DNA of 64,000 bases from Bdellovibrionales bacterium (GTDB taxonomy: Bacteria; Bdellovibrionota; Bdellovibrionia; Bdellovibrionales; JAGQZY01): positions 619,194 through 683,193 of the forward strand of contig CAXRHT010000001.1 in assembly GCA_964230645.1 (NCBI GenBank), in the 5' to 3' direction. A program made the translations under genes and the position numbers. Below the pieces are notes generated by a model. It saw only the letters and a program-made list of their open reading frames with translations, searched no databases and was not told the origin of the DNA. This document shows positions 2,074-63,925 of this stretch, piece after piece (within the stretch, counting starts at the first letter, position 1; each line of letters opens with the position of its first letter).

Positions 2074-2616
2074 TCAATTATGACAGGTTGAACAGTTTAA
2101 AGGGCCTTGAGGATCTTGTTCTCTGTGGCAATTCACACACCAACCCATGGAGAGGCTGCTATGTTGCTCAACCACATCCATCTTTTTAATATCACCATGA
2201 CAGGTGTTACAGGCTGGATAGCGATCATCAGGGGTGCTAAAACGATGAACGTGACGTTTGTGATTAAACTTCACGTGGTCTGGTAACATATGAACTTTCA
2301 CCCAGTTCACCGTCTCCCCATCGAAGTACTTCTTTCTTAGTTTTTGAATTTCTGGTTTGTCGATCGCAACAACCTGGTGGCAATTCATACAAATATTAAG
2401 ACTGGGAACAGCAGAGTGCTTCGCCACTTCCACTTGTGTGTGACAGTACACACAAGCCATCTTGTATTTTCCCGCGTGAAGTTTGTGAGAAAACTTGATG
2501 GGTTGTTCTGGTTTATACCCTTTGTTGTATCCTATGCTTCCCCACTCACATTGACTGCAGAAAAGCATAATTAATAACAAGGGAAAGAATTTTATCGATC
2601 GCTGAATCAAGAACAT
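2074..2616 (-). CDS. actA: Pentahaem c-type cytochrome, ActA-like subunit of alternative complex III
   Basis: Five CxxCH motifs (CVYCH, CMNCH, CNTCH, CVNCH, CSTCH) and an N-terminal hydrophobic anchor. Start trimmed to ATG 2616 (MFLIQRS...), which has GAAGGAG just upstream. Track ORF is 2074..2655. Confidence 0.75.
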   Translation of the reverse strand: MFLIQRSIKFFPLLLIMLFCSQCEWGSIGYNKGYKPEQPIKFSHKLHAGKYKMACVYCHTQVEVAKHSAVPSLNICMNCHQVVAIDKPEIQKLRKKYFDGETVNWVKVHMLPDHVKFNHKRHVHRFSTPDDRYPACNTCHGDIKKMDVVEQHSSLSMGWCVNCHREQDPQGPLNCSTCHN

Positions 2617-2888
2617 CGACTCTCCTTCAACTGCACCGTTCACCGGTGCGACCAACTCAGTAGACCCAAGAGTACGCGAAAATCGTACTGATCAAGGGCG
2701 CGATTTAATTTTCAAAAGCCTTTCACTTGTAAAAGAAATACCCGTGCTTGTTAAGGATTTTACGAATCTGCATTAAGATTGTGCAGGCTATGCCGCGCAC
2801 TATCAATCTGAGGGCTGTTGTGAAAAAGAGACGATTTTGTCTTTTTTTGCAAAAATCACTCAACACTCTCCAAGCCGAAGGAAGCAAA

Positions 2889-2920
2889 ATAAAAAAAAGC
2901 ATCGTGTGGGGCACGATGCT
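2889..2920 (-). terminator. Rho-independent terminator-like hairpin downstream of the S8 protease gene
   Basis: 9 bp stem agcatcgtg / cacgatgct (2898-2906 / 2912-2920) with a 5 nt loop. The A9 run on the plus strand gives a U-tract after the hairpin on the minus strand. Confidence 0.6.
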
Positions 2921-3108
2921 TTCGGGGTATGGGATATGGGGATTTGGGATCTATGAAGGCCTTCGACACTGTCTCCAACCTTCTGACTTTATATATATTC
3001 ATTTTTAGTGCCAATTTTGAATGCTCATCTCAAATTAACAGCTCTCCCATTTGGCTCTCACTCGAAAATTTAGCAAGACGCTCTAAAACGGCACCCCCCT
3101 GCCAAGAC

Positions 3109-4821
3109 TTAAAACAATTGAGCCTGACTCCAAAAGTTCTCTAACTTTGCAAAATATGTTTCATCCTGAGACTCTCCAACCAGAGGCGCACCTTCTTGAC
3201 GAACTTGCAGAGCCGCCTCTTTGAAACTAAGGCCTTTGATTTTGAGTTCTAAAACCTCTCTCATCCGTTTCTCGTAAACAACGCCTCCACTCACACAGGG
3301 CAGAGGGTTTTCGATATCTGGTATATACGCACTTATTAGTAGAGCTGTTTTTAAATCTTTGCCGCTAACCCCTGGAAAGCTCTCAGCCACGCGAGCCACA
3401 ACATTGAGTGCCTTGGGTGTTGCCATGGATGTTCCAGAAAGCGGGCCGTAACTTCCACCTAAAAAGGCCGCCATCACATCCGTTCCTGGAGCGAAAATAT
3501 CGGCTGACTGTTTTCCGTAACTGGAAAAATCGGCTTTTATGGCATATTCAGGATCCGGAGTCTCCTGCCACTCCGCCGCCGCAAGGGCCCCCACCACGAC
3601 CATATTATCGTGCTGCCATCCTGCTGGAAATTTGGGGAACTCGTCCAAATCGCTAACGGAGTTACCAGCGGCAATAAAGAAAAGAGCGTCGGATTGGGAT
3701 TCAATCAACTCTTCTAGAGCAATAAAGGATTCCCGTGGTGGCGCCATCCCTCCGGGAGTTTCAAAGGAAAAACTCATGTTCACAAAGCGGGCTTTATGAG
3801 TTTTGATAAATTCTCCTATGCGCGCAAGTTGAGCGGGGTTGGTGTAATTTCCAGCAAAACCGGCCAGCGACCATCTTTCAATTCCGTCCATTGCCAAACT
3901 GGCCACATGGGTTCCATGGGAAATAATGGGGCGGAGTTTATCGTTAAAGAGAAAGGATTCTCTTAAATCGTTTATGGGCTCTCCCCCTTGAACCTGATTC
4001 ACCCCATAAACGTCATCCACAAGACCGTTACCATCGTTATCAAAACCGTCGAATGTCTCTTTGGGGTTTTGATACCAGTGAGAAACTAAATCCGGGTGAT
4101 CGGTTTCAAAACCAGAATCAATAACCACGACACCTAGGGGTTTAGGGGCAGGCCATGAATTCTCCTCATACAGCTCATCAAATCTTACTGGTCCCTGGCT
4201 GGAATAATCACTGATGACTTGTTGATCTCGGTTAAGTCTTCGCACACCCACCACCCGTACATCCAAAACAACCTGCGCGCTGGGATCATTGACAGTGTAC
4301 TCTTCATAAAACTCCACCTCTTCGTTATCGTCATAGAAAATTTTGAAAAGAGGGATGTCGGTCCCTTCTACATACTCCAGGTAAAGAACCAAGCGAGAGT
4401 CCGTTTTATTTTCATTTTCTTCGTATATCCATTCGGCAAGTTTGAGTGGAAGGACTTGCCCTGGAATATCACGCACATGGGTTTTCTTTTTAATATAGGC
4501 TCGAAAGGGCTCAACAGAATAAGAGGTCTTTATATAGCTACCATCGGAAAGCTCCTCAATATCCCCCTCATAGGTCTGCTCTTGATCGATATTATAAATC
4601 TTTACACTAACCCTCTGACCATTTTCGTAGAAAACAGATTTAGAAAGCTTTGATGGGTCAGAAAACAATCGGTCGACACGAACCAATTCACCAGACTCGT
4701 TACAGTAGTTGCGATATCTATCCTCTTCATTACCGAGAGGATGATCCGGACAGAGAATTTCCATAGACATAGCCTGAAAACTCATGAGCAAACTCAAGAT
4801 GAGAAATAAACCCCTATTCAT
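3109..4821 (-). CDS. Secreted subtilisin-like serine protease (peptidase S8)
   Basis: Asp/His/Ser triad motifs VVVIDSGFETDHPDL, SHGTHVASLA and GTSMATPKA. Signal peptide MNRGLFLILSLLMSFQAMS from ATG 4821. Track ORF extends to 4887. Confidence 0.8.
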   Translation of the reverse strand: MNRGLFLILSLLMSFQAMSMEILCPDHPLGNEEDRYRNYCNESGELVRVDRLFSDPSKLSKSVFYENGQRVSVKIYNIDQEQTYEGDIEELSDGSYIKTSYSVEPFRAYIKKKTHVRDIPGQVLPLKLAEWIYEENENKTDSRLVLYLEYVEGTDIPLFKIFYDDNEEVEFYEEYTVNDPSAQVVLDVRVVGVRRLNRDQQVISDYSSQGPVRFDELYEENSWPAPKPLGVVVIDSGFETDHPDLVSHWYQNPKETFDGFDNDGNGLVDDVYGVNQVQGGEPINDLRESFLFNDKLRPIISHGTHVASLAMDGIERWSLAGFAGNYTNPAQLARIGEFIKTHKARFVNMSFSFETPGGMAPPRESFIALEELIESQSDALFFIAAGNSVSDLDEFPKFPAGWQHDNMVVVGALAAAEWQETPDPEYAIKADFSSYGKQSADIFAPGTDVMAAFLGGSYGPLSGTSMATPKALNVVARVAESFPGVSGKDLKTALLISAYIPDIENPLPCVSGGVVYEKRMREVLELKIKGLSFKEAALQVRQEGAPLVGESQDETYFAKLENFWSQAQLF

Positions 4822-4938
4822 TTTTGACCCCTTGTTAAACAGTGGAAAACCTAGCACAAGCCCTAGAGAACATCTCTTAGGAGTCATGAAATGAATTTTT
4901 TTCTGTTTTTTTTACAGGCTGTCAGTTAGGTAATAGGT

Positions 4939-5454
4939 ATGACAGTAGAAAATCCCGGAACTCACCCTCCCATTGGAATCTTGAGTGTGCTGATGGATGA
5001 AAAGACTCAGCAATACCTAAATCAGTGGCGTGAGCAATATTTTCCTGAATCGATTAATTATTTACAGGCCCATATCACTTTGTTTCATAAATTAGATTTG
5101 GAAAAATTTGAATCGATGGATGAGTTGCCGGCTCAACCCAAAAACAATTTGGAATTAAATTTCGACAAAGTGTATTTTCTCGGCAAAGGTTTTGCTATTG
5201 AAGCTCTCTGCCCTCCCCTTTTAGAATTTCACCATAGATTTCAAAAACTCTATTTTTCAGAGCTCTCAAAGCAGGATCAGCAAAAAAAGAAGTTACACGT
5301 CACTCTTCAAAACAAAGTCTCTCCCGACAAAGCTAAAAAAGACTTCGAAGATTTTAAGGTTAAGTTCCAAGGATTTAGAGGAGAGGCCATAGGCTTAAGC
5401 CTTCATCACTACCAAGGAGGTCCTTGGCAGAAAGTGAAAGACTTTATGTTCTGA
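4939..5454 (+). CDS. 2H phosphoesterase superfamily protein (LigT / 2'-5' RNA ligase-like)
   Basis: Two HxT motifs at the expected spacing (AHITLF and LHVTLQ); 171 aa. Confidence 0.6.
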   Translation: MTVENPGTHPPIGILSVLMDEKTQQYLNQWREQYFPESINYLQAHITLFHKLDLEKFESMDELPAQPKNNLELNFDKVYFLGKGFAIEALCPPLLEFHHRFQKLYFSELSKQDQQKKKLHVTLQNKVSPDKAKKDFEDFKVKFQGFRGEAIGLSLHHYQGGPWQKVKDFMF

Positions 5455-9993: not shown

Positions 9994-11102
9994 AACTAAT
10001 GTTGGCCACTGAGCAAGACAATGAAGACCTGAAAAGTTTTTTTAACAAACAGGTCTTAGAGGGCGTTTACGATTATCGCCTGGTACGCTCAAACTCTTTT
10101 TTTGATCAGTACAAAATCTCGACTGATGATTATCAGACCTATATTTTAAAGGACCGTAGCGGGGAAATCCAAGCCATGGCCTCTATGCTATTTAAAAAAG
10201 GCTATATTCACGATCAAGAGCAAACCATTGGTTATGTCACTGATCTTCGTGTTTCAAAATCTCGAGCCGCAACCCTGACATGGACCAAGGAGTTTGTTCC
10301 TGCCTTTGAAGCCGAAAGGGAAAAGAGAAATTGCCAATTTATTTTTTCAGAACTGGAGCAATTCGAGAACATCGCCTACAACACTTTGTTGCGTCGACGC
10401 AGCCGTACGACCTATATGCCGCGCTATCATCTTTTCCGGAAATTCTATTTGGTCGCTATTTACGGTAAACATTTTTTTGCAGACTATCCGCTTTCAACTA
10501 TTAAGATTGAAAACGGTAGAACCGAAGACATCGAACCTCTTTGCCAGTACTTGCAGAGCAAGTCCGTTCGACGCCCCTTACGCTACAACACCAATGTTGA
10601 AGAGCTTGAAAGAAGACTTAGAATCTGGCCCAACTTTTCCATTCAGAATTTTTTAGTGGCTCGCAATAGGCAGGGTCAAATTATTGGGTGCATGGCTCCT
10701 TGGAACAATCGCGATGTTCAACAAGTTATTGCCCATAAGTACAAACGTCAAAGTTTTCAAGTTTTCTCCACAAGTCAAACGCTTGGACTTTTGGGGTTAG
10801 CAAGACCTCTTCCTAAGCCAGGCCAGGCGTTTCAGTTTAAATACATCACTCATGGAGCTTACGATAACCCTGATATTTTTTATTCCCTTCTTAATCGGGC
10901 TTACTATGACTGCCAAAACAAAGAGCTCTTAGTTTATCAAAATTATTTTGGAGATTTCCCCACTCGCCCGCCTCGCTCTTTTATGCACATAAAAATTCCT
11001 TATGGTTTTTACTCGGTTCTTGATCACGAAGCCAAACTGCCTCACTTTTTACACCCCAATCCTTTTATCCCAGCACCAGACTTTCAAGTTTATGCATTCT
11101 AA
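9990..11102 (+). CDS. Hypothetical protein (possible GNAT-like acyltransferase fold; function unknown)
   Basis: Long ORF. ATG 9990 overlaps the upstream TGA (ATGA coupling). No catalytic motif recognised. Confidence 0.5.
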   Translation: MKLMLATEQDNEDLKSFFNKQVLEGVYDYRLVRSNSFFDQYKISTDDYQTYILKDRSGEIQAMASMLFKKGYIHDQEQTIGYVTDLRVSKSRAATLTWTKEFVPAFEAEREKRNCQFIFSELEQFENIAYNTLLRRRSRTTYMPRYHLFRKFYLVAIYGKHFFADYPLSTIKIENGRTEDIEPLCQYLQSKSVRRPLRYNTNVEELERRLRIWPNFSIQNFLVARNRQGQIIGCMAPWNNRDVQQVIAHKYKRQSFQVFSTSQTLGLLGLARPLPKPGQAFQFKYITHGAYDNPDIFYSLLNRAYYDCQNKELLVYQNYFGDFPTRPPRSFMHIKIPYGFYSVLDHEAKLPHFLHPNPFIPAPDFQVYAF

Positions 11103-26649: not shown

Positions 26650-27654
26650 ATGAACTCAAAACAAGTTTTACAATCCCTATTGAATGTTTTTAAGTACCAC
26701 AAAAAAAAGATTTTCTTCTTTTTTGGCTCTGTTGTTTTCGGAATCATTGTTTTGTTTCCCTACGATGATTTGAGCGACTTCATTACTCAACAGGTGACCC
26801 AAGAAACTCAAAGCAATGTCTATTTGCAATTTGACGGGCTTTCTTTTGGTCTCATGCCTCAGTTGGGTATTAAAATGGAAAACGTTTTAATCGAGACCGT
26901 TTACGCCCCGACTATGTCGGTCAAGACTCTTGGCTTTGCTCCCAAAATTTCCTCTCTACTCGGTTCGGCAGCAGGAAAGCTCGTTGCCTATGGTCTCTTT
27001 GACGGCGAAGCCTCTGTTGATTTTGGCCCAAGTAATGAACTCGACATTGAAGGCGAAGAGATGGGACTTGAGGTTGAGCTAGAAAATGTCGATCTCAAGG
27101 AACTGACCAAATTTATCAATGAATCCAAGAAACTTCCTGTCACCATGAATGGAACCACGCAATTGGATTCTAGTTTTTATGTGGACCCAAGCTTTAAAGA
27201 ACAGCCAAAGGGCACAGTCATTTTAGCTGTGAAAAACTTAGACATTCCATCCTCTACTCTCCCTATCAATATGAATGGGGTTCAAATGAGCCTTTCTCTT
27301 CCCGCTTTAAAACTCTCGGAGCTAAAGCTTGAAGGCAACCTCGATGATGGAAAGTTCTTTATTCGCGAGGGAAAAATTGGCGAAACTAAAAATGACCTTT
27401 ACGGAACTATTACTGGTGATGTCTTCTTCCAAATGGCCCCTGGGGGCCGCTTCCTTCCCGGTGGTTACGACTTAAAAGTGAACCTGAACATCAGTGAGAA
27501 TTTGCAAAGACAGCTCAAACTTTTTCTGAGTGTTCTCGATATGCATGAAGGCATTGGTGATAAATACAAATTTAAAAGTCTTCGAGGCGTGCGCTATTCC
27601 ATGCGCATCTCTGCCCGCAACTTCAGCTCAGCCCCCCAAGTCAAATCCTACTAA
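26650..27654 (+). CDS. gspN: GspN-like protein
   Basis: N-terminal TM (IFFFFGSVVFGIIVLF). Last gene of the gsp run. Assignment is by position and architecture only. Confidence 0.45.
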   Translation: MNSKQVLQSLLNVFKYHKKKIFFFFGSVVFGIIVLFPYDDLSDFITQQVTQETQSNVYLQFDGLSFGLMPQLGIKMENVLIETVYAPTMSVKTLGFAPKISSLLGSAAGKLVAYGLFDGEASVDFGPSNELDIEGEEMGLEVELENVDLKELTKFINESKKLPVTMNGTTQLDSSFYVDPSFKEQPKGTVILAVKNLDIPSSTLPINMNGVQMSLSLPALKLSELKLEGNLDDGKFFIREGKIGETKNDLYGTITGDVFFQMAPGGRFLPGGYDLKVNLNISENLQRQLKLFLSVLDMHEGIGDKYKFKSLRGVRYSMRISARNFSSAPQVKSY

Positions 27655-27772
27655 AAGGTACCAGGTTCTTTTTTCGGAAGCACAGTGACAATCTGTAGCT
27701 ACTATCTACTTAAAAGAGACCCGATACTTTAAAATTGGCGCTGCGCTTCCGAAAATAGAACCTGGTACCTTT
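27654..27772. repeat. MITE-like palindromic element, family copy 1
   Basis: TIRs are aaaggtaccaggttcttttttcggaagc (27654-27681) and gcttccgaaaatagaacctggtaccttt (27745-27772), matching 27/28. It begins at the last base of the gspN stop codon. Confidence 0.8.
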
Positions 27773-27911
27773 CATGGTGCGGTCCGGCAAATCCGGGATT
27801 CCTTTGCGACCTCTGGATAAAATCGGGTAATTTTCAAAGTTCTTCGGCTAGATCTATGGCCAGGGGGATGCATTTCGCGTACAACAGAAACTCGAGAAGG
27901 GAGCTTGATTT

Positions 27912-61491: not shown

Positions 61492-61849
61492 GTTTATAAC
61501 CCCCGTTTGTGAGTTCAAGGCTAGAACTGTTAAAAACACTAAGTCTATTATTTTTTGCCTTTTAAACAAGGCGTTAACAAAAAGCCAGACCTTTCAGTAA
61601 ACAATCGAAAATATTGCTATTTTCCTTTGCGCGTTCGGATTTTTTTGTGGTTAAATCTTGGGTCTTTTCATACCCACGACAGGCTTGGTTTTTTTCTTCA
61701 TTCCACCTCTTTTATAAATTTATACTACAAAAAAGTAGGTCTTGAATTGACCCCAAAAAGAATGTGCAATTGTAGACAAGAAATCTTCTCGATTGCTCCA
61801 TGCTCAAAATTAAAGTGCGATGTAGAGTGAAGACTTTATGAGGGGCAAA

Positions 61850-62488
61850 ATGAAATTTACGACCGTGGTTTTAATCATGAGTTTATCCATTATTTTTTTA
61901 GGCTGCTCGGTCTTTGGTGTTCGCTCAGCCCCCACACCTGATTACCAAGTACTCGTTGAAGATAAAGATAAGCAAATCAGAGAATACGACGAATATATTG
62001 TAGCCAAAACAACCGTCTCAGAATCTAATTACGATGATGCCCAGAACAAAGCCTTTAGACGTCTGGCGGATTATATTTTTGGAAAAAATAAAACGAATAC
62101 CGAAATGAAAATGACAACTCCTGTGACACAAAAAAATAATTCCAGTGAAACATTAGAAATGACAGCTCCCGTTTTGCAGTCTGAGGGTGAAAACTCTCGG
62201 ACCATGAGCTTCATTATGCCAAAAGAATATACGATGGAGTCTTTACCTGCACCCAAAGACTCTCGAATCGAATTTGAAAAGGTCCCAAAAAGAACCATGG
62301 CCGCTATCCGCTACACTTGGTCAGAAAATAAAGAGCGCAATCAAAAAAAAGCTCAAGAACTTTTAGATTGGCTTAAAAAGCAACCTAAATACAAACAAGT
62401 CGCGTCCCCAGTGTATGCCGGCTACGATCCCCCTTGGACTCTCCCCTTTTTACGTAGAAATGAAATGCTTATTGAAGTTAAAAAGTAA
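61850..62488 (+). CDS. SOUL haem-binding-family lipoprotein
   Basis: Lipobox IFLGCS. Duplicated MTTPV / MTAPV motifs and SOUL-type length. Confidence 0.6.
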   Translation: MKFTTVVLIMSLSIIFLGCSVFGVRSAPTPDYQVLVEDKDKQIREYDEYIVAKTTVSESNYDDAQNKAFRRLADYIFGKNKTNTEMKMTTPVTQKNNSSETLEMTAPVLQSEGENSRTMSFIMPKEYTMESLPAPKDSRIEFEKVPKRTMAAIRYTWSENKERNQKKAQELLDWLKKQPKYKQVASPVYAGYDPPWTLPFLRRNEMLIEVKK

Positions 62489-62504
62489 ATTGAAAGTACC
62501 TTGA

Positions 62505-62693
62505 AAGTACCTGGTTCTTTTTTCGTATGCGTGGTGTTAATGCCGACGAGTCCTCACTGAAAATTCAAGTCTGGTGTTGGTTCTCCCTAATAGCCAGGCT
62601 TCGGAAACAGAAATGGCAATCCAAATTCACTACCGGGACAATGATGTTAAAAGCAATCTTGACGTTGTGCTTCCGAAAAAAGAACCTGGTACC
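62505..62693. repeat. MITE-like palindromic element, family copy 2
   Basis: The reverse complement of the right end (62666-62693) is gggtaccaggttcttttttcggaagcac, matching the copy-1 left TIR. The left end gtacctggttcttttttcgtatgc is degenerate. It fills the gap between convergent SOUL and hutI genes. Confidence 0.75.
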
Positions 62694-62695
62694 CT

Positions 62696-63925
62696 CTAGG
62701 GTTTTACTGCTTTTCCTTTTATATAGGTTTTTTCGGCCTGATGATTTTCCATCGAGTAGAAGAAGTTTTGCCAGGGTTTTTCTGTGATGAAGAAGTCGGC
62801 TTGTTTTCCTAGGGTGAGTGATCCTCTTTGGTTTTCTAGACCGAGAGCGCAGGCGCCATTGTAGGTGAGTGCTGCGAAGACTTCGGGTAGAGACATTTTC
62901 ATTTTTAATCTTGCAAGAAGACCGACAAAGCTTATGTTCTGAGTGGGACTAGAGCCTGGGTTATGGTCAGTGGCTAGAGCCACTCTTCCGCCTTGATCAA
63001 TGAGAGCTCTGGCATCAGGGTAATCGCATTGAAGGTAAAAGTCGGCGGCTGGAAGAAGGACGGCTACTGTTTGAGACTGAGCGAGAGTTTTTTTGCCTTT
63101 TTTATCAAGGCAGATCACATGGTCAGCCGATTGCGCCTTTAACTCGACAGCCAAATCACTACCACCGGTGAGATTGAGTTGATCGGCGTGAATGGTGACC
63201 TTAAAGCCCATTTCTATGGCTGTGTTCAGATAGTCTTTGGCTTTTTCTTTTGAGAAATAATTCTTTTCAACGAAGATATCCACTCGGTCGGCAAGCTTGT
63301 TTTTCTTTATTATTTTTAAGTCTTCTTTGAGAGTTTCAAGGTAGCTTTCCTCATTCATTTCTTTGGGAATGGCGTGCGCCCCTAGGTAAGTGGTAACCAC
63401 TTGGATACCTTTCAGGGCTCTGGCGGCTTTGAGCATTTTTTTTTCGGTCTTTAAATTGAGGCCGTAGCCACTTTTTATTTCAACTGTTGTAACACCTTGT
63501 TTGAGATGCTCCTTCACCCTTTGTTGAGCGAGTTCGGTGAGCTTTTTCTCACTGGCCTTGCGAGTGGACTCGACTGTAAATAAAATCCCTCCGCCTTTAT
63601 TGGCGATTTCTTGATAGCTGGTTCCCTGATTTCGAAGTTCAAACTCGTGCTTTCTATCGCCAGCGAAAACAAAATGGGTATGGCAATCGATAAATCCCGG
63701 AAAGACGTTTTTCTTTTTTAAGTCTACCTCTTTCAAAGCTTTGTAAGCTTTAGGGATTTTATCATTGTTTCCAATCCAAGAGATTTTACCGTCCTCTACA
63801 GCGAAAGCTTTTTTCTTCACAACACCGAGATCCTCTTTTAAAGGCTTTCGGCCCTGCTTTTGGAGGACTCCTGAGAGAGTCATCAACTCCCCTGCATTTC
63901 GAAAGATGGTTCCCTTTTTAGCCAA
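62696..63925 (-). CDS. hutI: Imidazolonepropionase
   Basis: GFIDCHTHFVFAGDR, GGGI and HADQL motifs of the amidohydrolase HutI family; 409 aa. Confidence 0.85.
   Translation of the reverse strand: MAKKGTIFRNAGELMTLSGVLQKQGRKPLKEDLGVVKKKAFAVEDGKISWIGNNDKIPKAYKALKEVDLKKKNVFPGFIDCHTHFVFAGDRKHEFELRNQGTSYQEIANKGGGILFTVESTRKASEKKLTELAQQRVKEHLKQGVTTVEIKSGYGLNLKTEKKMLKAARALKGIQVVTTYLGAHAIPKEMNEESYLETLKEDLKIIKKNKLADRVDIFVEKNYFSKEKAKDYLNTAIEMGFKVTIHADQLNLTGGSDLAVELKAQSADHVICLDKKGKKTLAQSQTVAVLLPAADFYLQCDYPDARALIDQGGRVALATDHNPGSSPTQNISFVGLLARLKMKMSLPEVFAALTYNGACALGLENQRGSLTLGKQADFFITEKPWQNFFYSMENHQAEKTYIKGKAVKP

Follow-up and report, generated by a model that had tools for sequence, protein, structure and literature searches.

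The 64-kb window, by which we mean the whole stretch of DNA that was analysed, contains two loci at which copies of a short repeat stand close to gene ends. At the first of these, referred to as element 1 (E1), two inverted copies follow a GspN-like gene, the homologues of which carry the JGI name type II secretion system protein N. At the second, element 2 (E2), one copy lies behind a SOUL-family gene and another at the end of an amidohydrolase gene encoded on the opposite strand. The features of both loci, in order of position, are as follows:

26650..27654, + strand: GspN-like gene, taken from the ORF list
about 27652-27691, + strand: left unit of E1 including its tail, containing the imperfect palindrome AAAGGTACC-A-GGTTCTTTT
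27654..27681, + strand: REP unit, left arm of E1, with the 28-mer core AAAGGTACCAGGTTCTTTTTTCGGAAGC; exact match to the consensus, nhmmer E = 3e-13
27682..27744, no strand: spacer of E1, 63 bp, conserved in no other copy
27745..27772, - strand: REP unit, right arm of E1; 27/28, nhmmer E = 1.7e-13, coincides with no gene end
61838..62488, + strand: SOUL-family gene (Pfam SOUL)
62490..62511, + strand: tandem 11-nt duplication, TTGAAAGTACC twice, of flank and 5' arm of the left unit of E2
62503..62530, + strand: degenerate REP singlet, left unit of E2, GAAAGTACCTGGTTCTTTTTTCGTATGC; 23/28, nhmmer E = 6e-9
62669..62696, - strand: REP singlet, right unit of E2; 26/28, nhmmer E = 6e-12
62696..63925, - strand: amidohydrolase gene (Pfam Amidohydro_1)

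REP-type units in the window

According to our analysis, the repeat is a REP-type unit of about 36 nt. It is made up of a 9+1+9 palindrome that is imperfect, AAAGGTACC-W-GGTTCTTTT, of the linker TTCGGAAGC and of a tail resembling GCnnnGCG. The 64-kb window has four occurrences of the 28-mer AAAGGTACCAGGTTCTTTTTTCGGAAGC, where 0 are expected, and a 20-mer taken from the initial annotation of this DNA gave four matches with up to 3 mismatches in the window vs 0 in 100 shuffles. A profile built from all copies (nhmmer) recovered four units in the window and no others.

E1 measures 119 bp in total (27654-27772), and its arms at 27654-27681 (+) and 27745-27772 (-) match at 27 of 28 positions around a core of 63 bp, just as had been described from the sequence at the outset. 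The inverted repeat reaches 39 nt at 90% complementarity, and as RNA the region folds with -64.9 kcal/mol (z = -8.8 vs shuffles). The 5' ends of the two units point outward, which is the same arrangement as around the transposase gene described below. E1 is a REPIN-like doublet of two inverted units, for which a long hairpin is possible in single-stranded DNA or RNA.

The terminus had also been reported to recur at a second locus. This recurrence is real (26/28, minus strand), but the unit is found at 62669-62696 and the coordinates 62666-62693 given for it were 3 nt off; the degenerate left arm at 62503-62530 (23/28) had not been listed. The core of this locus, which had been described as different and longer, is indeed unlike that of E1, but it is an ordinary spacer between two independent units. 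E2 is accordingly no single element: it is two independent REP singlets that mark the 3' ends of two convergent genes, one singlet per gene. Because the E1 and E2 loci have the unit in common and nothing else, they are not a segmental duplication of one another, a possibility that the initial annotation had raised against itself and that is hereby ruled out. The spacer of E1 is dissimilar to that of E2 and to those of two doublets in a related genome (L002 and L060).

The Rfam scan of the whole window returned no family at gathering score, and the sigma-70 scan found no site at the E1 or E2 locus. Readings of the repeat as a sigma-54, sigma-28 or ECF promoter were set aside, as the spacing does not fit (judged by eye). 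The intrinsic-terminator scan left the E1 and E2 pairs unflagged, their long stems and loops exceeding the limits of the tool, and recorded a small separate hairpin at 27783-27797 after E1. A GspN-like protein of identical sequence is also encoded on JBESVY010000008.1 (GCA_041252335.1), and metagenome contigs scanned with an exact 23-mer gave 0 matches.

Copies in related genomes and their position at stop codons

When 185,579 representative genomes (GTDB) were scanned with a pattern, 61 DNA stretches were obtained, the window's own sites not being among them, and 31 of these stretches came from one MAG, CAYVRZ01 (uncultured Pseudobdellovibrionaceae bacterium). Single copies in L011, L019 and probably L053 derive from other Bdellovibrionales MAGs, and the remaining pattern matches, all from outside the Bdellovibrionales, were rejected as chance or conserved coding sequence. 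Further copies beyond the two loci, on which the initial annotation had made its repeat family depend, do exist: besides the four units of the window there are 37 in CAYVRZ01, a number that is a lower bound set by the exact 19-mer pattern used (one position free, one A/T). Of the 37, 30 are identical to the 28-mer save for position 10 (A or T), and the consensus of all 37 is the one that is matched exactly by the left arm of E1. The DNA shared between CAYVRZ01 (GC 53%) and the window (GC 43%) is the unit alone, and the flanks of the CAYVRZ01 copies are mutually unrelated. The conserved region is longer than 28 nt, with C (64%) and T (76%) just before it and with three variable bases and then GCG, at 79-90%, behind it.

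In CAYVRZ01, 33 of the 37 units have no partner within 400 bp, also when searched with the profile, and there are two tight inverted doublets (L002 and L060). As 33 of the 37 copies stand alone, we regard the unit of about 36 nt as the repeat itself and not as the end of a larger element; the DNA between two units is ordinary local sequence. The singlets are near-identical to the consensus and no more decayed than the doublets, and the start-to-start spacing of doublets varies (79, 90 and 93 nt). Three further apparent pairs in this MAG, L049, L057 and L055, are 600-820 bp apart. The units of L049 and L057 are independent, since each stands at the end of a different gene, and the third pair, L055 2574(+)/3395(-), brackets a transposase gene. 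Nine copies, eight of them in CAYVRZ01 and the ninth being the left unit of E2, carry a tandem duplication of 11-19 nt made up of flank and the 5' part of the unit, and in L058 the junction duplication amounts to about 30 nt.

That the copies of the window sit at stop codons, as first noted from the sequence, was borne out. The left arm of E1 shares its first base with the TAA (27652-27654) that closes the GspN-like ORF, this base being the final A. The right arm of E2 overlaps the TAG of the amidohydrolase ORF 62696..63925 on the minus strand, again by its first base alone, here the G, and the left arm of E2 begins 15 nt past the TAA of ORF 61838..62488. For all evaluable copies, placement was scored as a same-strand ORF of at least 100 codons ending anywhere from 20 nt upstream of the unit to its third base. 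By this measure 30 of 41 copies stand in sense orientation on a stop codon or up to 20 nt after it, vs 4 of 39 in antisense and 2.9% of random positions in the same loci. In about 20 of the 30, the stop codon (T+AA, T+AG or the like) shares bases with the beginning of the unit. Units define or extend annotated gene ends in this way, which has a practical consequence for annotation.

Eleven of the 41 copies are located away from gene ends. Units lie within coding sequence in L007, L021 and L050; in the latter two, where the genes overlap as ATGA, the unit is found 5-7 nt past the upstream stop and within the first signal-peptide codons of the next gene. One copy lies in frame within an ORF of 1094 residues that is IcmF-like, and terminator-like hairpins follow several copies. 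Some ORFs read through units. Since copies differ in the frame that the unit takes with respect to the stop, a role in readthrough or frameshifting was rejected.

The candidate partner enzyme and its repeats across lineages

The ORF bracketed by the units L055 2574(+) and 3395(-), 2712..3356, encodes 214 aa. Its protein scores 29.3 bits against Pfam Y1_Tnp (cutoff 23), and the best NCBIfam model is "REP-associated tyrosine transposase" with 75.8 bits (E = 3e-21), 4 bits under the cutoff of 80; the IS200 model gives 21.8 bits at a cutoff of 55. The sole PDB relative is 4ER8, E. coli TnpAREP, to which the HUH motif and the catalytic Tyr region could be aligned, at low similarity (E = 8e-8 over about 100 residues). 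Across an alignment of 10 homologues, HFH and YKY..NP are invariant. A total of 747 homologues were obtained at E <= 1e-10; the few that are named by organism are Bdellovibrio or Bdellovibrionales, and several are named RayT by JGI. Judged by these matches, the L055 protein is a predicted Y1/HUH transposase of the RAYT clade and not an IS200 transposase.

No RAYT homologue is encoded within the 64-kb window, and the closest NCBI homologue, P0046, sits in another MAG with a GC content of 55%. What putatively links the window (GC 43%) to a RAYT is that the identical 28-mer is present in a lineage of another genus-level group (GC 53%). Mobilisation by a transposase encoded elsewhere, one of the options that had been named for these repeats, seems essentially right, the likely partner being a Y1/HUH RAYT that is absent from the window.

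In order to relate repeat and enzyme, seven named loci, including Bdellovibrio reynosensis CP093442 (3.58 Mb) and strain BCCA (3.80-Mb contig), and 80 metagenomic loci encoding homologues were examined, of which 78 had enough flank on both sides. An inverted repeat (score >= 14) flanks the transposase gene in 70 of the 78 loci; by our own estimate, an exact 14-mer common to two 400-nt stretches would arise by chance in fewer than 1 per thousand loci. Bracketing of the RAYT gene by inverted units was also seen in L072-L076 and L159. An over-represented repeat that brackets the gene is a hallmark of REP/RAYT systems (PMC5581495; PMC3116915). Most arms, while differing in sequence from one lineage to the next, follow the pattern AAAGGT-NNN-N-NNN-ACCTTTT and carry a GCnnnGCG tail. 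One contig, represented by L085 and L088, carries two RAYTs, so that a single genome holds two enzymes with a repeat of their own each. Examples of lineage arms are:

GGTACCTGGTTCTTTTTTCGGAAGC; GGTACCYGGTTCTTTTTMCAGAAGC; GGTACCTGCTTCCCTTTGCATAAAC
GGTGCCTGCTTCTTTTTTGGGTCTAC; AAAGGTGCCTGGCACCTTTT; AAGGTCGTCCCGACCTTTT

The first 19 nt of the unit read AAAGGT-NNN-N-NNN-ACCTTT across lineages. Among 59 units from different loci, 71.9% of the cells are paired, vs 66.4 +/- 0.9 after shuffling (reached in 0/500) and 44-59% with the partner slid, figures that, given the relatedness of the sequences, cannot be read as probabilities. Pairing is preserved by compensatory changes from A-T to G-C at pair 7-13 and from C-G to G-C at 8-12 and 9-11, and pair 6-14 is mismatched in 41 of the 59 units. 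Since 8 of 9 positions pair in the window's unit, with a T x T mismatch and with the variable position 10 at the apex, the sequence points to an imperfect, A/T-rich palindrome. The DNA fold of a single unit is no better than shuffles (z about 0) despite the palindrome at family level, a result which may, in the light of the family comparison of sequences, be misleading. Classical REPs are defined by a GTAG or CGTC tag (PMC3479197; PMC3733652). On neither strand did such a tag occupy a conserved position; the motif that comes closest, GTAC (GTGC in other lineages), lies within the stem.

Changes at the DNA level could be followed at several loci. In a relative with 78% GspN identity no unit follows gspN and a different stretch of about 115 nt is found there, with the ssb-proximal half of the spacer still aligning. 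A relative with 99% GspN identity has E1, with five substitutions in the 63-bp spacer, an identical left arm and a right arm that differs at two positions, at one of which it has moved closer to the consensus. A pair of MAGs with 64% identity between their RAYTs shares the same neighbourhood (SDR, RlpA-like, CPBP), in which a 1.8-kb block of SDR and RAYT is inverted, and the breakpoints of this inversion coincide with inverted units. The sequences compared held no clean filled-versus-empty site, transposition event or excision product. At E1 the element is missing from the 78% relative, whose intergenic DNA has diverged too far for exact boundaries to be drawn; at E2 there was no close orthologue of the SOUL gene (next best 56%), and other contigs of the same species were identical.

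Origin of the repeats and comparison with known systems

We posit that the repeats of the window very probably belong to a REP/RAYT family of Bdellovibrio-like bacteria, with a REP-associated Y1/HUH transposase as the cognate enzyme. If this enzyme works like TnpAREP of E. coli, it would bind the unit in single-stranded DNA, cleave at a dinucleotide close by and join the strands again, and in this way copies of the unit would be spread and recombined with one another. We take the RAYT to be the likely mover of the units. In E. coli, TnpAREP cuts at a CT dinucleotide (C^T) near the REP (PMC3479197), and the CT that precedes most of our copies fits this model, suggesting that the cut may be made at the C^T before the unit. 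The transferred strand would then begin with T-AAAGG, that is, with its own TAA, and insertion at a C^T made by a C and a stop codon would regenerate the stop and leave the protein unchanged. Being harmless, such insertions could explain the oriented pile-up on stop codons, unless the units are selected for a function in the 3' UTR, which is the alternative.

Taken further, the mobile entity might be the single unit of about 36 nt and not the doublet, placed by the RAYT at C^T and carrying its own TAA, in other words a stop-codon-homing REP. We put this forward tentatively and consider it rather unlikely; if true, the unit could be co-opted for translation termination or for mRNA 3' ends in dozens of genes. 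REPs can affect mRNA 3' ends, and in E. coli those located up to about 15 nt from a stop codon reportedly lower the translation of the upstream gene. The units described here may have an effect on mRNA 3' ends as well, and terminator or protein-binding action may be a secondary effect.

One argument for seeing in the unit primarily a host 3'-end signal (mRNA-stabilising, ribosome-pausing or protein-binding), which is maintained by selection and to which the RAYT is incidental, is its placement: 30 of 41 copies lie in sense orientation at a stop or up to 20 nt after it, vs 4 of 39 in antisense and 3% at random. The identity of the 28-mer in genomes of 43% and 53% GC and the terminator-like hairpins after several copies point in the same direction. 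We nevertheless hold this explanation to be improbable. About 40 identical 28-mers cannot arise independently and therefore demand copying, for which the RAYT and its bracketing repeats (70 of 78 loci) supply one mechanism. Units are moreover present inside coding sequence (L007, L021 and L050) and, in 11 of 41 cases, away from gene ends, and the 78% relative is without a unit after gspN. As a secondary role, a host 3'-end signal is compatible with the REP/RAYT explanation.

An autonomous insertion sequence of the IS200/IS605 type, with the units as its ends and the dispersed copies as its debris, is very unlikely, even though the enzyme falls into the IS200-like Y1 superfamily and its gene is bracketed by units. 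The equivalog model for IS200 is matched with 21.8 (cutoff 55) vs 75.8 for the RAYT model, and the dispersed copies are intact and near-identical instead of debris. In the two MAGs the gene has the same neighbours at 64% protein identity, and this constancy suggests vertical inheritance and not a roaming insertion sequence. The exact protein is likewise recorded at one place in each of two chromosome-scale records (3.6-3.8 Mb). The ends of IS200/IS605 elements are two different hairpins and not an inverted pair, which also counts against this origin.

E1 taken by itself, with its 119 bp, its inverted ends matching at 27/28 and its intergenic position, looks the part of a classical MITE, that is, of a deletion derivative of a DDE insertion sequence which has 28-bp terminal inverted repeats and moves by cut-and-paste, leaving target-site duplications. 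The initial annotation had proposed a MITE-like family with conserved termini and variable cargo, a proposal that we have abandoned, as a MITE origin is extremely unlikely in view of the other copies. The 33 of 37 units without a partner within 400 bp in CAYVRZ01 would be single ends, and the spacers are unrelated between copies. No target-site duplication was seen, with no flanking direct repeat at E1, L002 or L060, nor was any DDE insertion sequence that has such ends; the single gene found between bracketing units codes for an enzyme of the Y1/HUH and not of the DDE type.

The notion that inverted pairs are recombination sites for phase variation and that E1 is an invertible segment is scarcely credible: an inversion bounded by inverted units does separate two MAGs, but the 63-bp spacer of E1 has no sigma-70-like promoter match, most units are single and spread over many contigs, and no recombinase gene was noticed beside E1 or E2. 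A dif/Xer-like site, an integron attC and a shufflon were rejected, there being no 11-6-11 symmetry and no array, with the copies dispersed.

Within the REP/RAYT explanation, there is a close likeness with the REP/BIME sequences and TnpAREP of E. coli (4ER8; PMC3479197). Both systems have short and mostly extragenic repeats at the 3' ends of genes and a single Y1/HUH transposase gene flanked by inverted repeats, and in both a CT dinucleotide adjoins the unit. The E. coli unit is an imperfect palindrome that keeps a mismatch, and the units described here, when compared across the family, read in the same way. The mismatch in the REP is needed for binding by the E. coli enzyme (PMC3479197). The repeats described here differ in that there is no 5' GTAG tag, with GGTAC or GGTGC in that region and within the stem, in that the stem is A/T-rich and thermodynamically weak, and in their conserved 3' tail, GCnnnGCG(TYA).

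E1 further resembles the REPINs of Pseudomonas fluorescens SBW25 (PMC3116915), being composed of inverted REPs around a less conserved spacer with the potential for a long hairpin. As in SBW25, the repeat sequence differs between RAYT lineages, and two RAYTs with their own repeats can be present in one genome. In SBW25, 61% of the REPs are in doublets and singlets are more decayed; according to the REPIN model, singlets are dead remnants, the singlet:doublet ratio is under 2 and there is a preferred spacing (PMC3116915). CAYVRZ01, by contrast, holds 33 singlets and 2 doublets that are equally conserved, and the spacing is not fixed. This dominance of singlets without additional decay contradicts the model of singlets as dead remnants and challenges the view that doublets alone replicate.

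Systems of the REP/RAYT kind are already known, and it is the lineage and its repeat that appear to be undescribed: in the literature searched we found no relevant record of the repeat sequence, nor of a Bdellovibrio with REP or RAYT. The departures from the textbook REP or REPIN are the dominance of singlets, the lack of a GTAG tag and the placement at stop codons. The REP/RAYT partnership would hereby be extended to Bdellovibrio-like predators. With 747 homologues, and with a flanking repeat of its own at most of the 78 loci, the family should be useful for studying how a RAYT reads its repeat, and the oriented placement at stop codons bears on the target choice of RAYTs and on the tuning of termination or transcript stability by REPs.

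Two other groups of bacterial repeats show partial similarities. The MIRUs of mycobacteria are short intergenic repeats that are oriented like the flanking genes and that, in operons, reach with their ends into the stop and start codons of adjacent genes. They form tandem arrays and have, to our knowledge, no dedicated transposase, whereas the units described here are single or inverted and tied to a RAYT. The Correia or NEMIS elements of Neisseria are MITEs of about 100-150 bp with terminal inverted repeats, situated near gene ends and forming hairpins in transcripts. Their interior is conserved, and they show TA target duplications. The repeats described here, in contrast, are mostly half-elements, and from copy to copy the interior shows no relationship.

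Position of element 1 and junction duplications

Directly after element 1, the REPIN-like doublet at the gspN stop, lies a small terminator-like hairpin (window 27783-27797; TCCGGCAAATCCGGG, followed by a T-rich tail). The sequence flanking this hairpin is partly conserved in the relative with 78% GspN identity, which does not carry element 1 after gspN. On this comparison, the element lies downstream of the gspN stop and ahead of a signal that was already present upstream of ssb.

Short duplications, comprising the last flank bases together with the 5' arm of the unit, were observed in approximately one fifth of the unit copies. They are 11-19 nt long and mostly tandem, the two copies in L058 being separated by about 30 nt. 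The loci concerned, designated by L-numbers for fetched DNA, are as follows.

Sites with duplication of flank and 5' arm
Window 62490-62511, reaching into a degenerate singlet
L004
L023
L031
L036
L056
L057 (-)
L058
L060 (+)
L073, upstream arm (locus encoding a RAYT homologue)

Such duplications might have been left behind by cleavage and rejoining, or have arisen through slippage at the palindrome.

Repeat units within coding sequence

Some units are part of reading frames. The unit at L007 3569-3602 lies in frame within an ORF of 1094 residues (2134..5418), to which it contributes QRYQVLFSEASQ at around residue 479, and which, judged by eye, looks like a fused IcmF-type mutase. The case recalls the palindromic elements that occur in frame in Rickettsia. 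Three further units (L021 6919, L050 4007 and L051 7999) fall within the initial codons of predicted signal peptides, where they are read in differing frames, as K-G-T-W-F-F-F-R-K or K-V-P-G-S-F-F-G-S; in L021 and L050 an ATGA stop/start overlap directly precedes the unit. An RlpA-like (DPBB) ORF runs across the adjacent unit in both MAGs with the RAYT loci L055 (3353..3808, -) and L159 (682..1140, +), and in L055 its final 13 codons are encoded by the repeat (...EVPGSFFGSVAEN).

RAYT loci and their rearrangement

According to tblastx, a block of about 1.8 kb that carries the RAYT gene together with a gene for a short-chain dehydrogenase has opposite orientations in L055 (1567-3395) and L159 (1091-2887). 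Inverted REP units are present at both breakpoints, and outside the block the neighbouring genes are common to both MAGs.

Two RAYT homologues (L085 and L088) are encoded on a single 707-kb metagenomic contig, JACXTT010000001.1, and each gene lies between copies of a repeat variant of its own (GGTGCCTGCCATC... and GGTACCTGCTTCC...). This agrees with descriptions of Pseudomonas genomes that contain several RAYT/REP pairs. In Bdellovibrio reynosensis CP093442 (L074) and strain BCCA, two flagellin genes flank the RAYT gene. In L074, the two REP units that closely follow this gene downstream enclose a heptanucleotide microsatellite, (TCACTCA)n, with about 17 repeats (~10730-10850).
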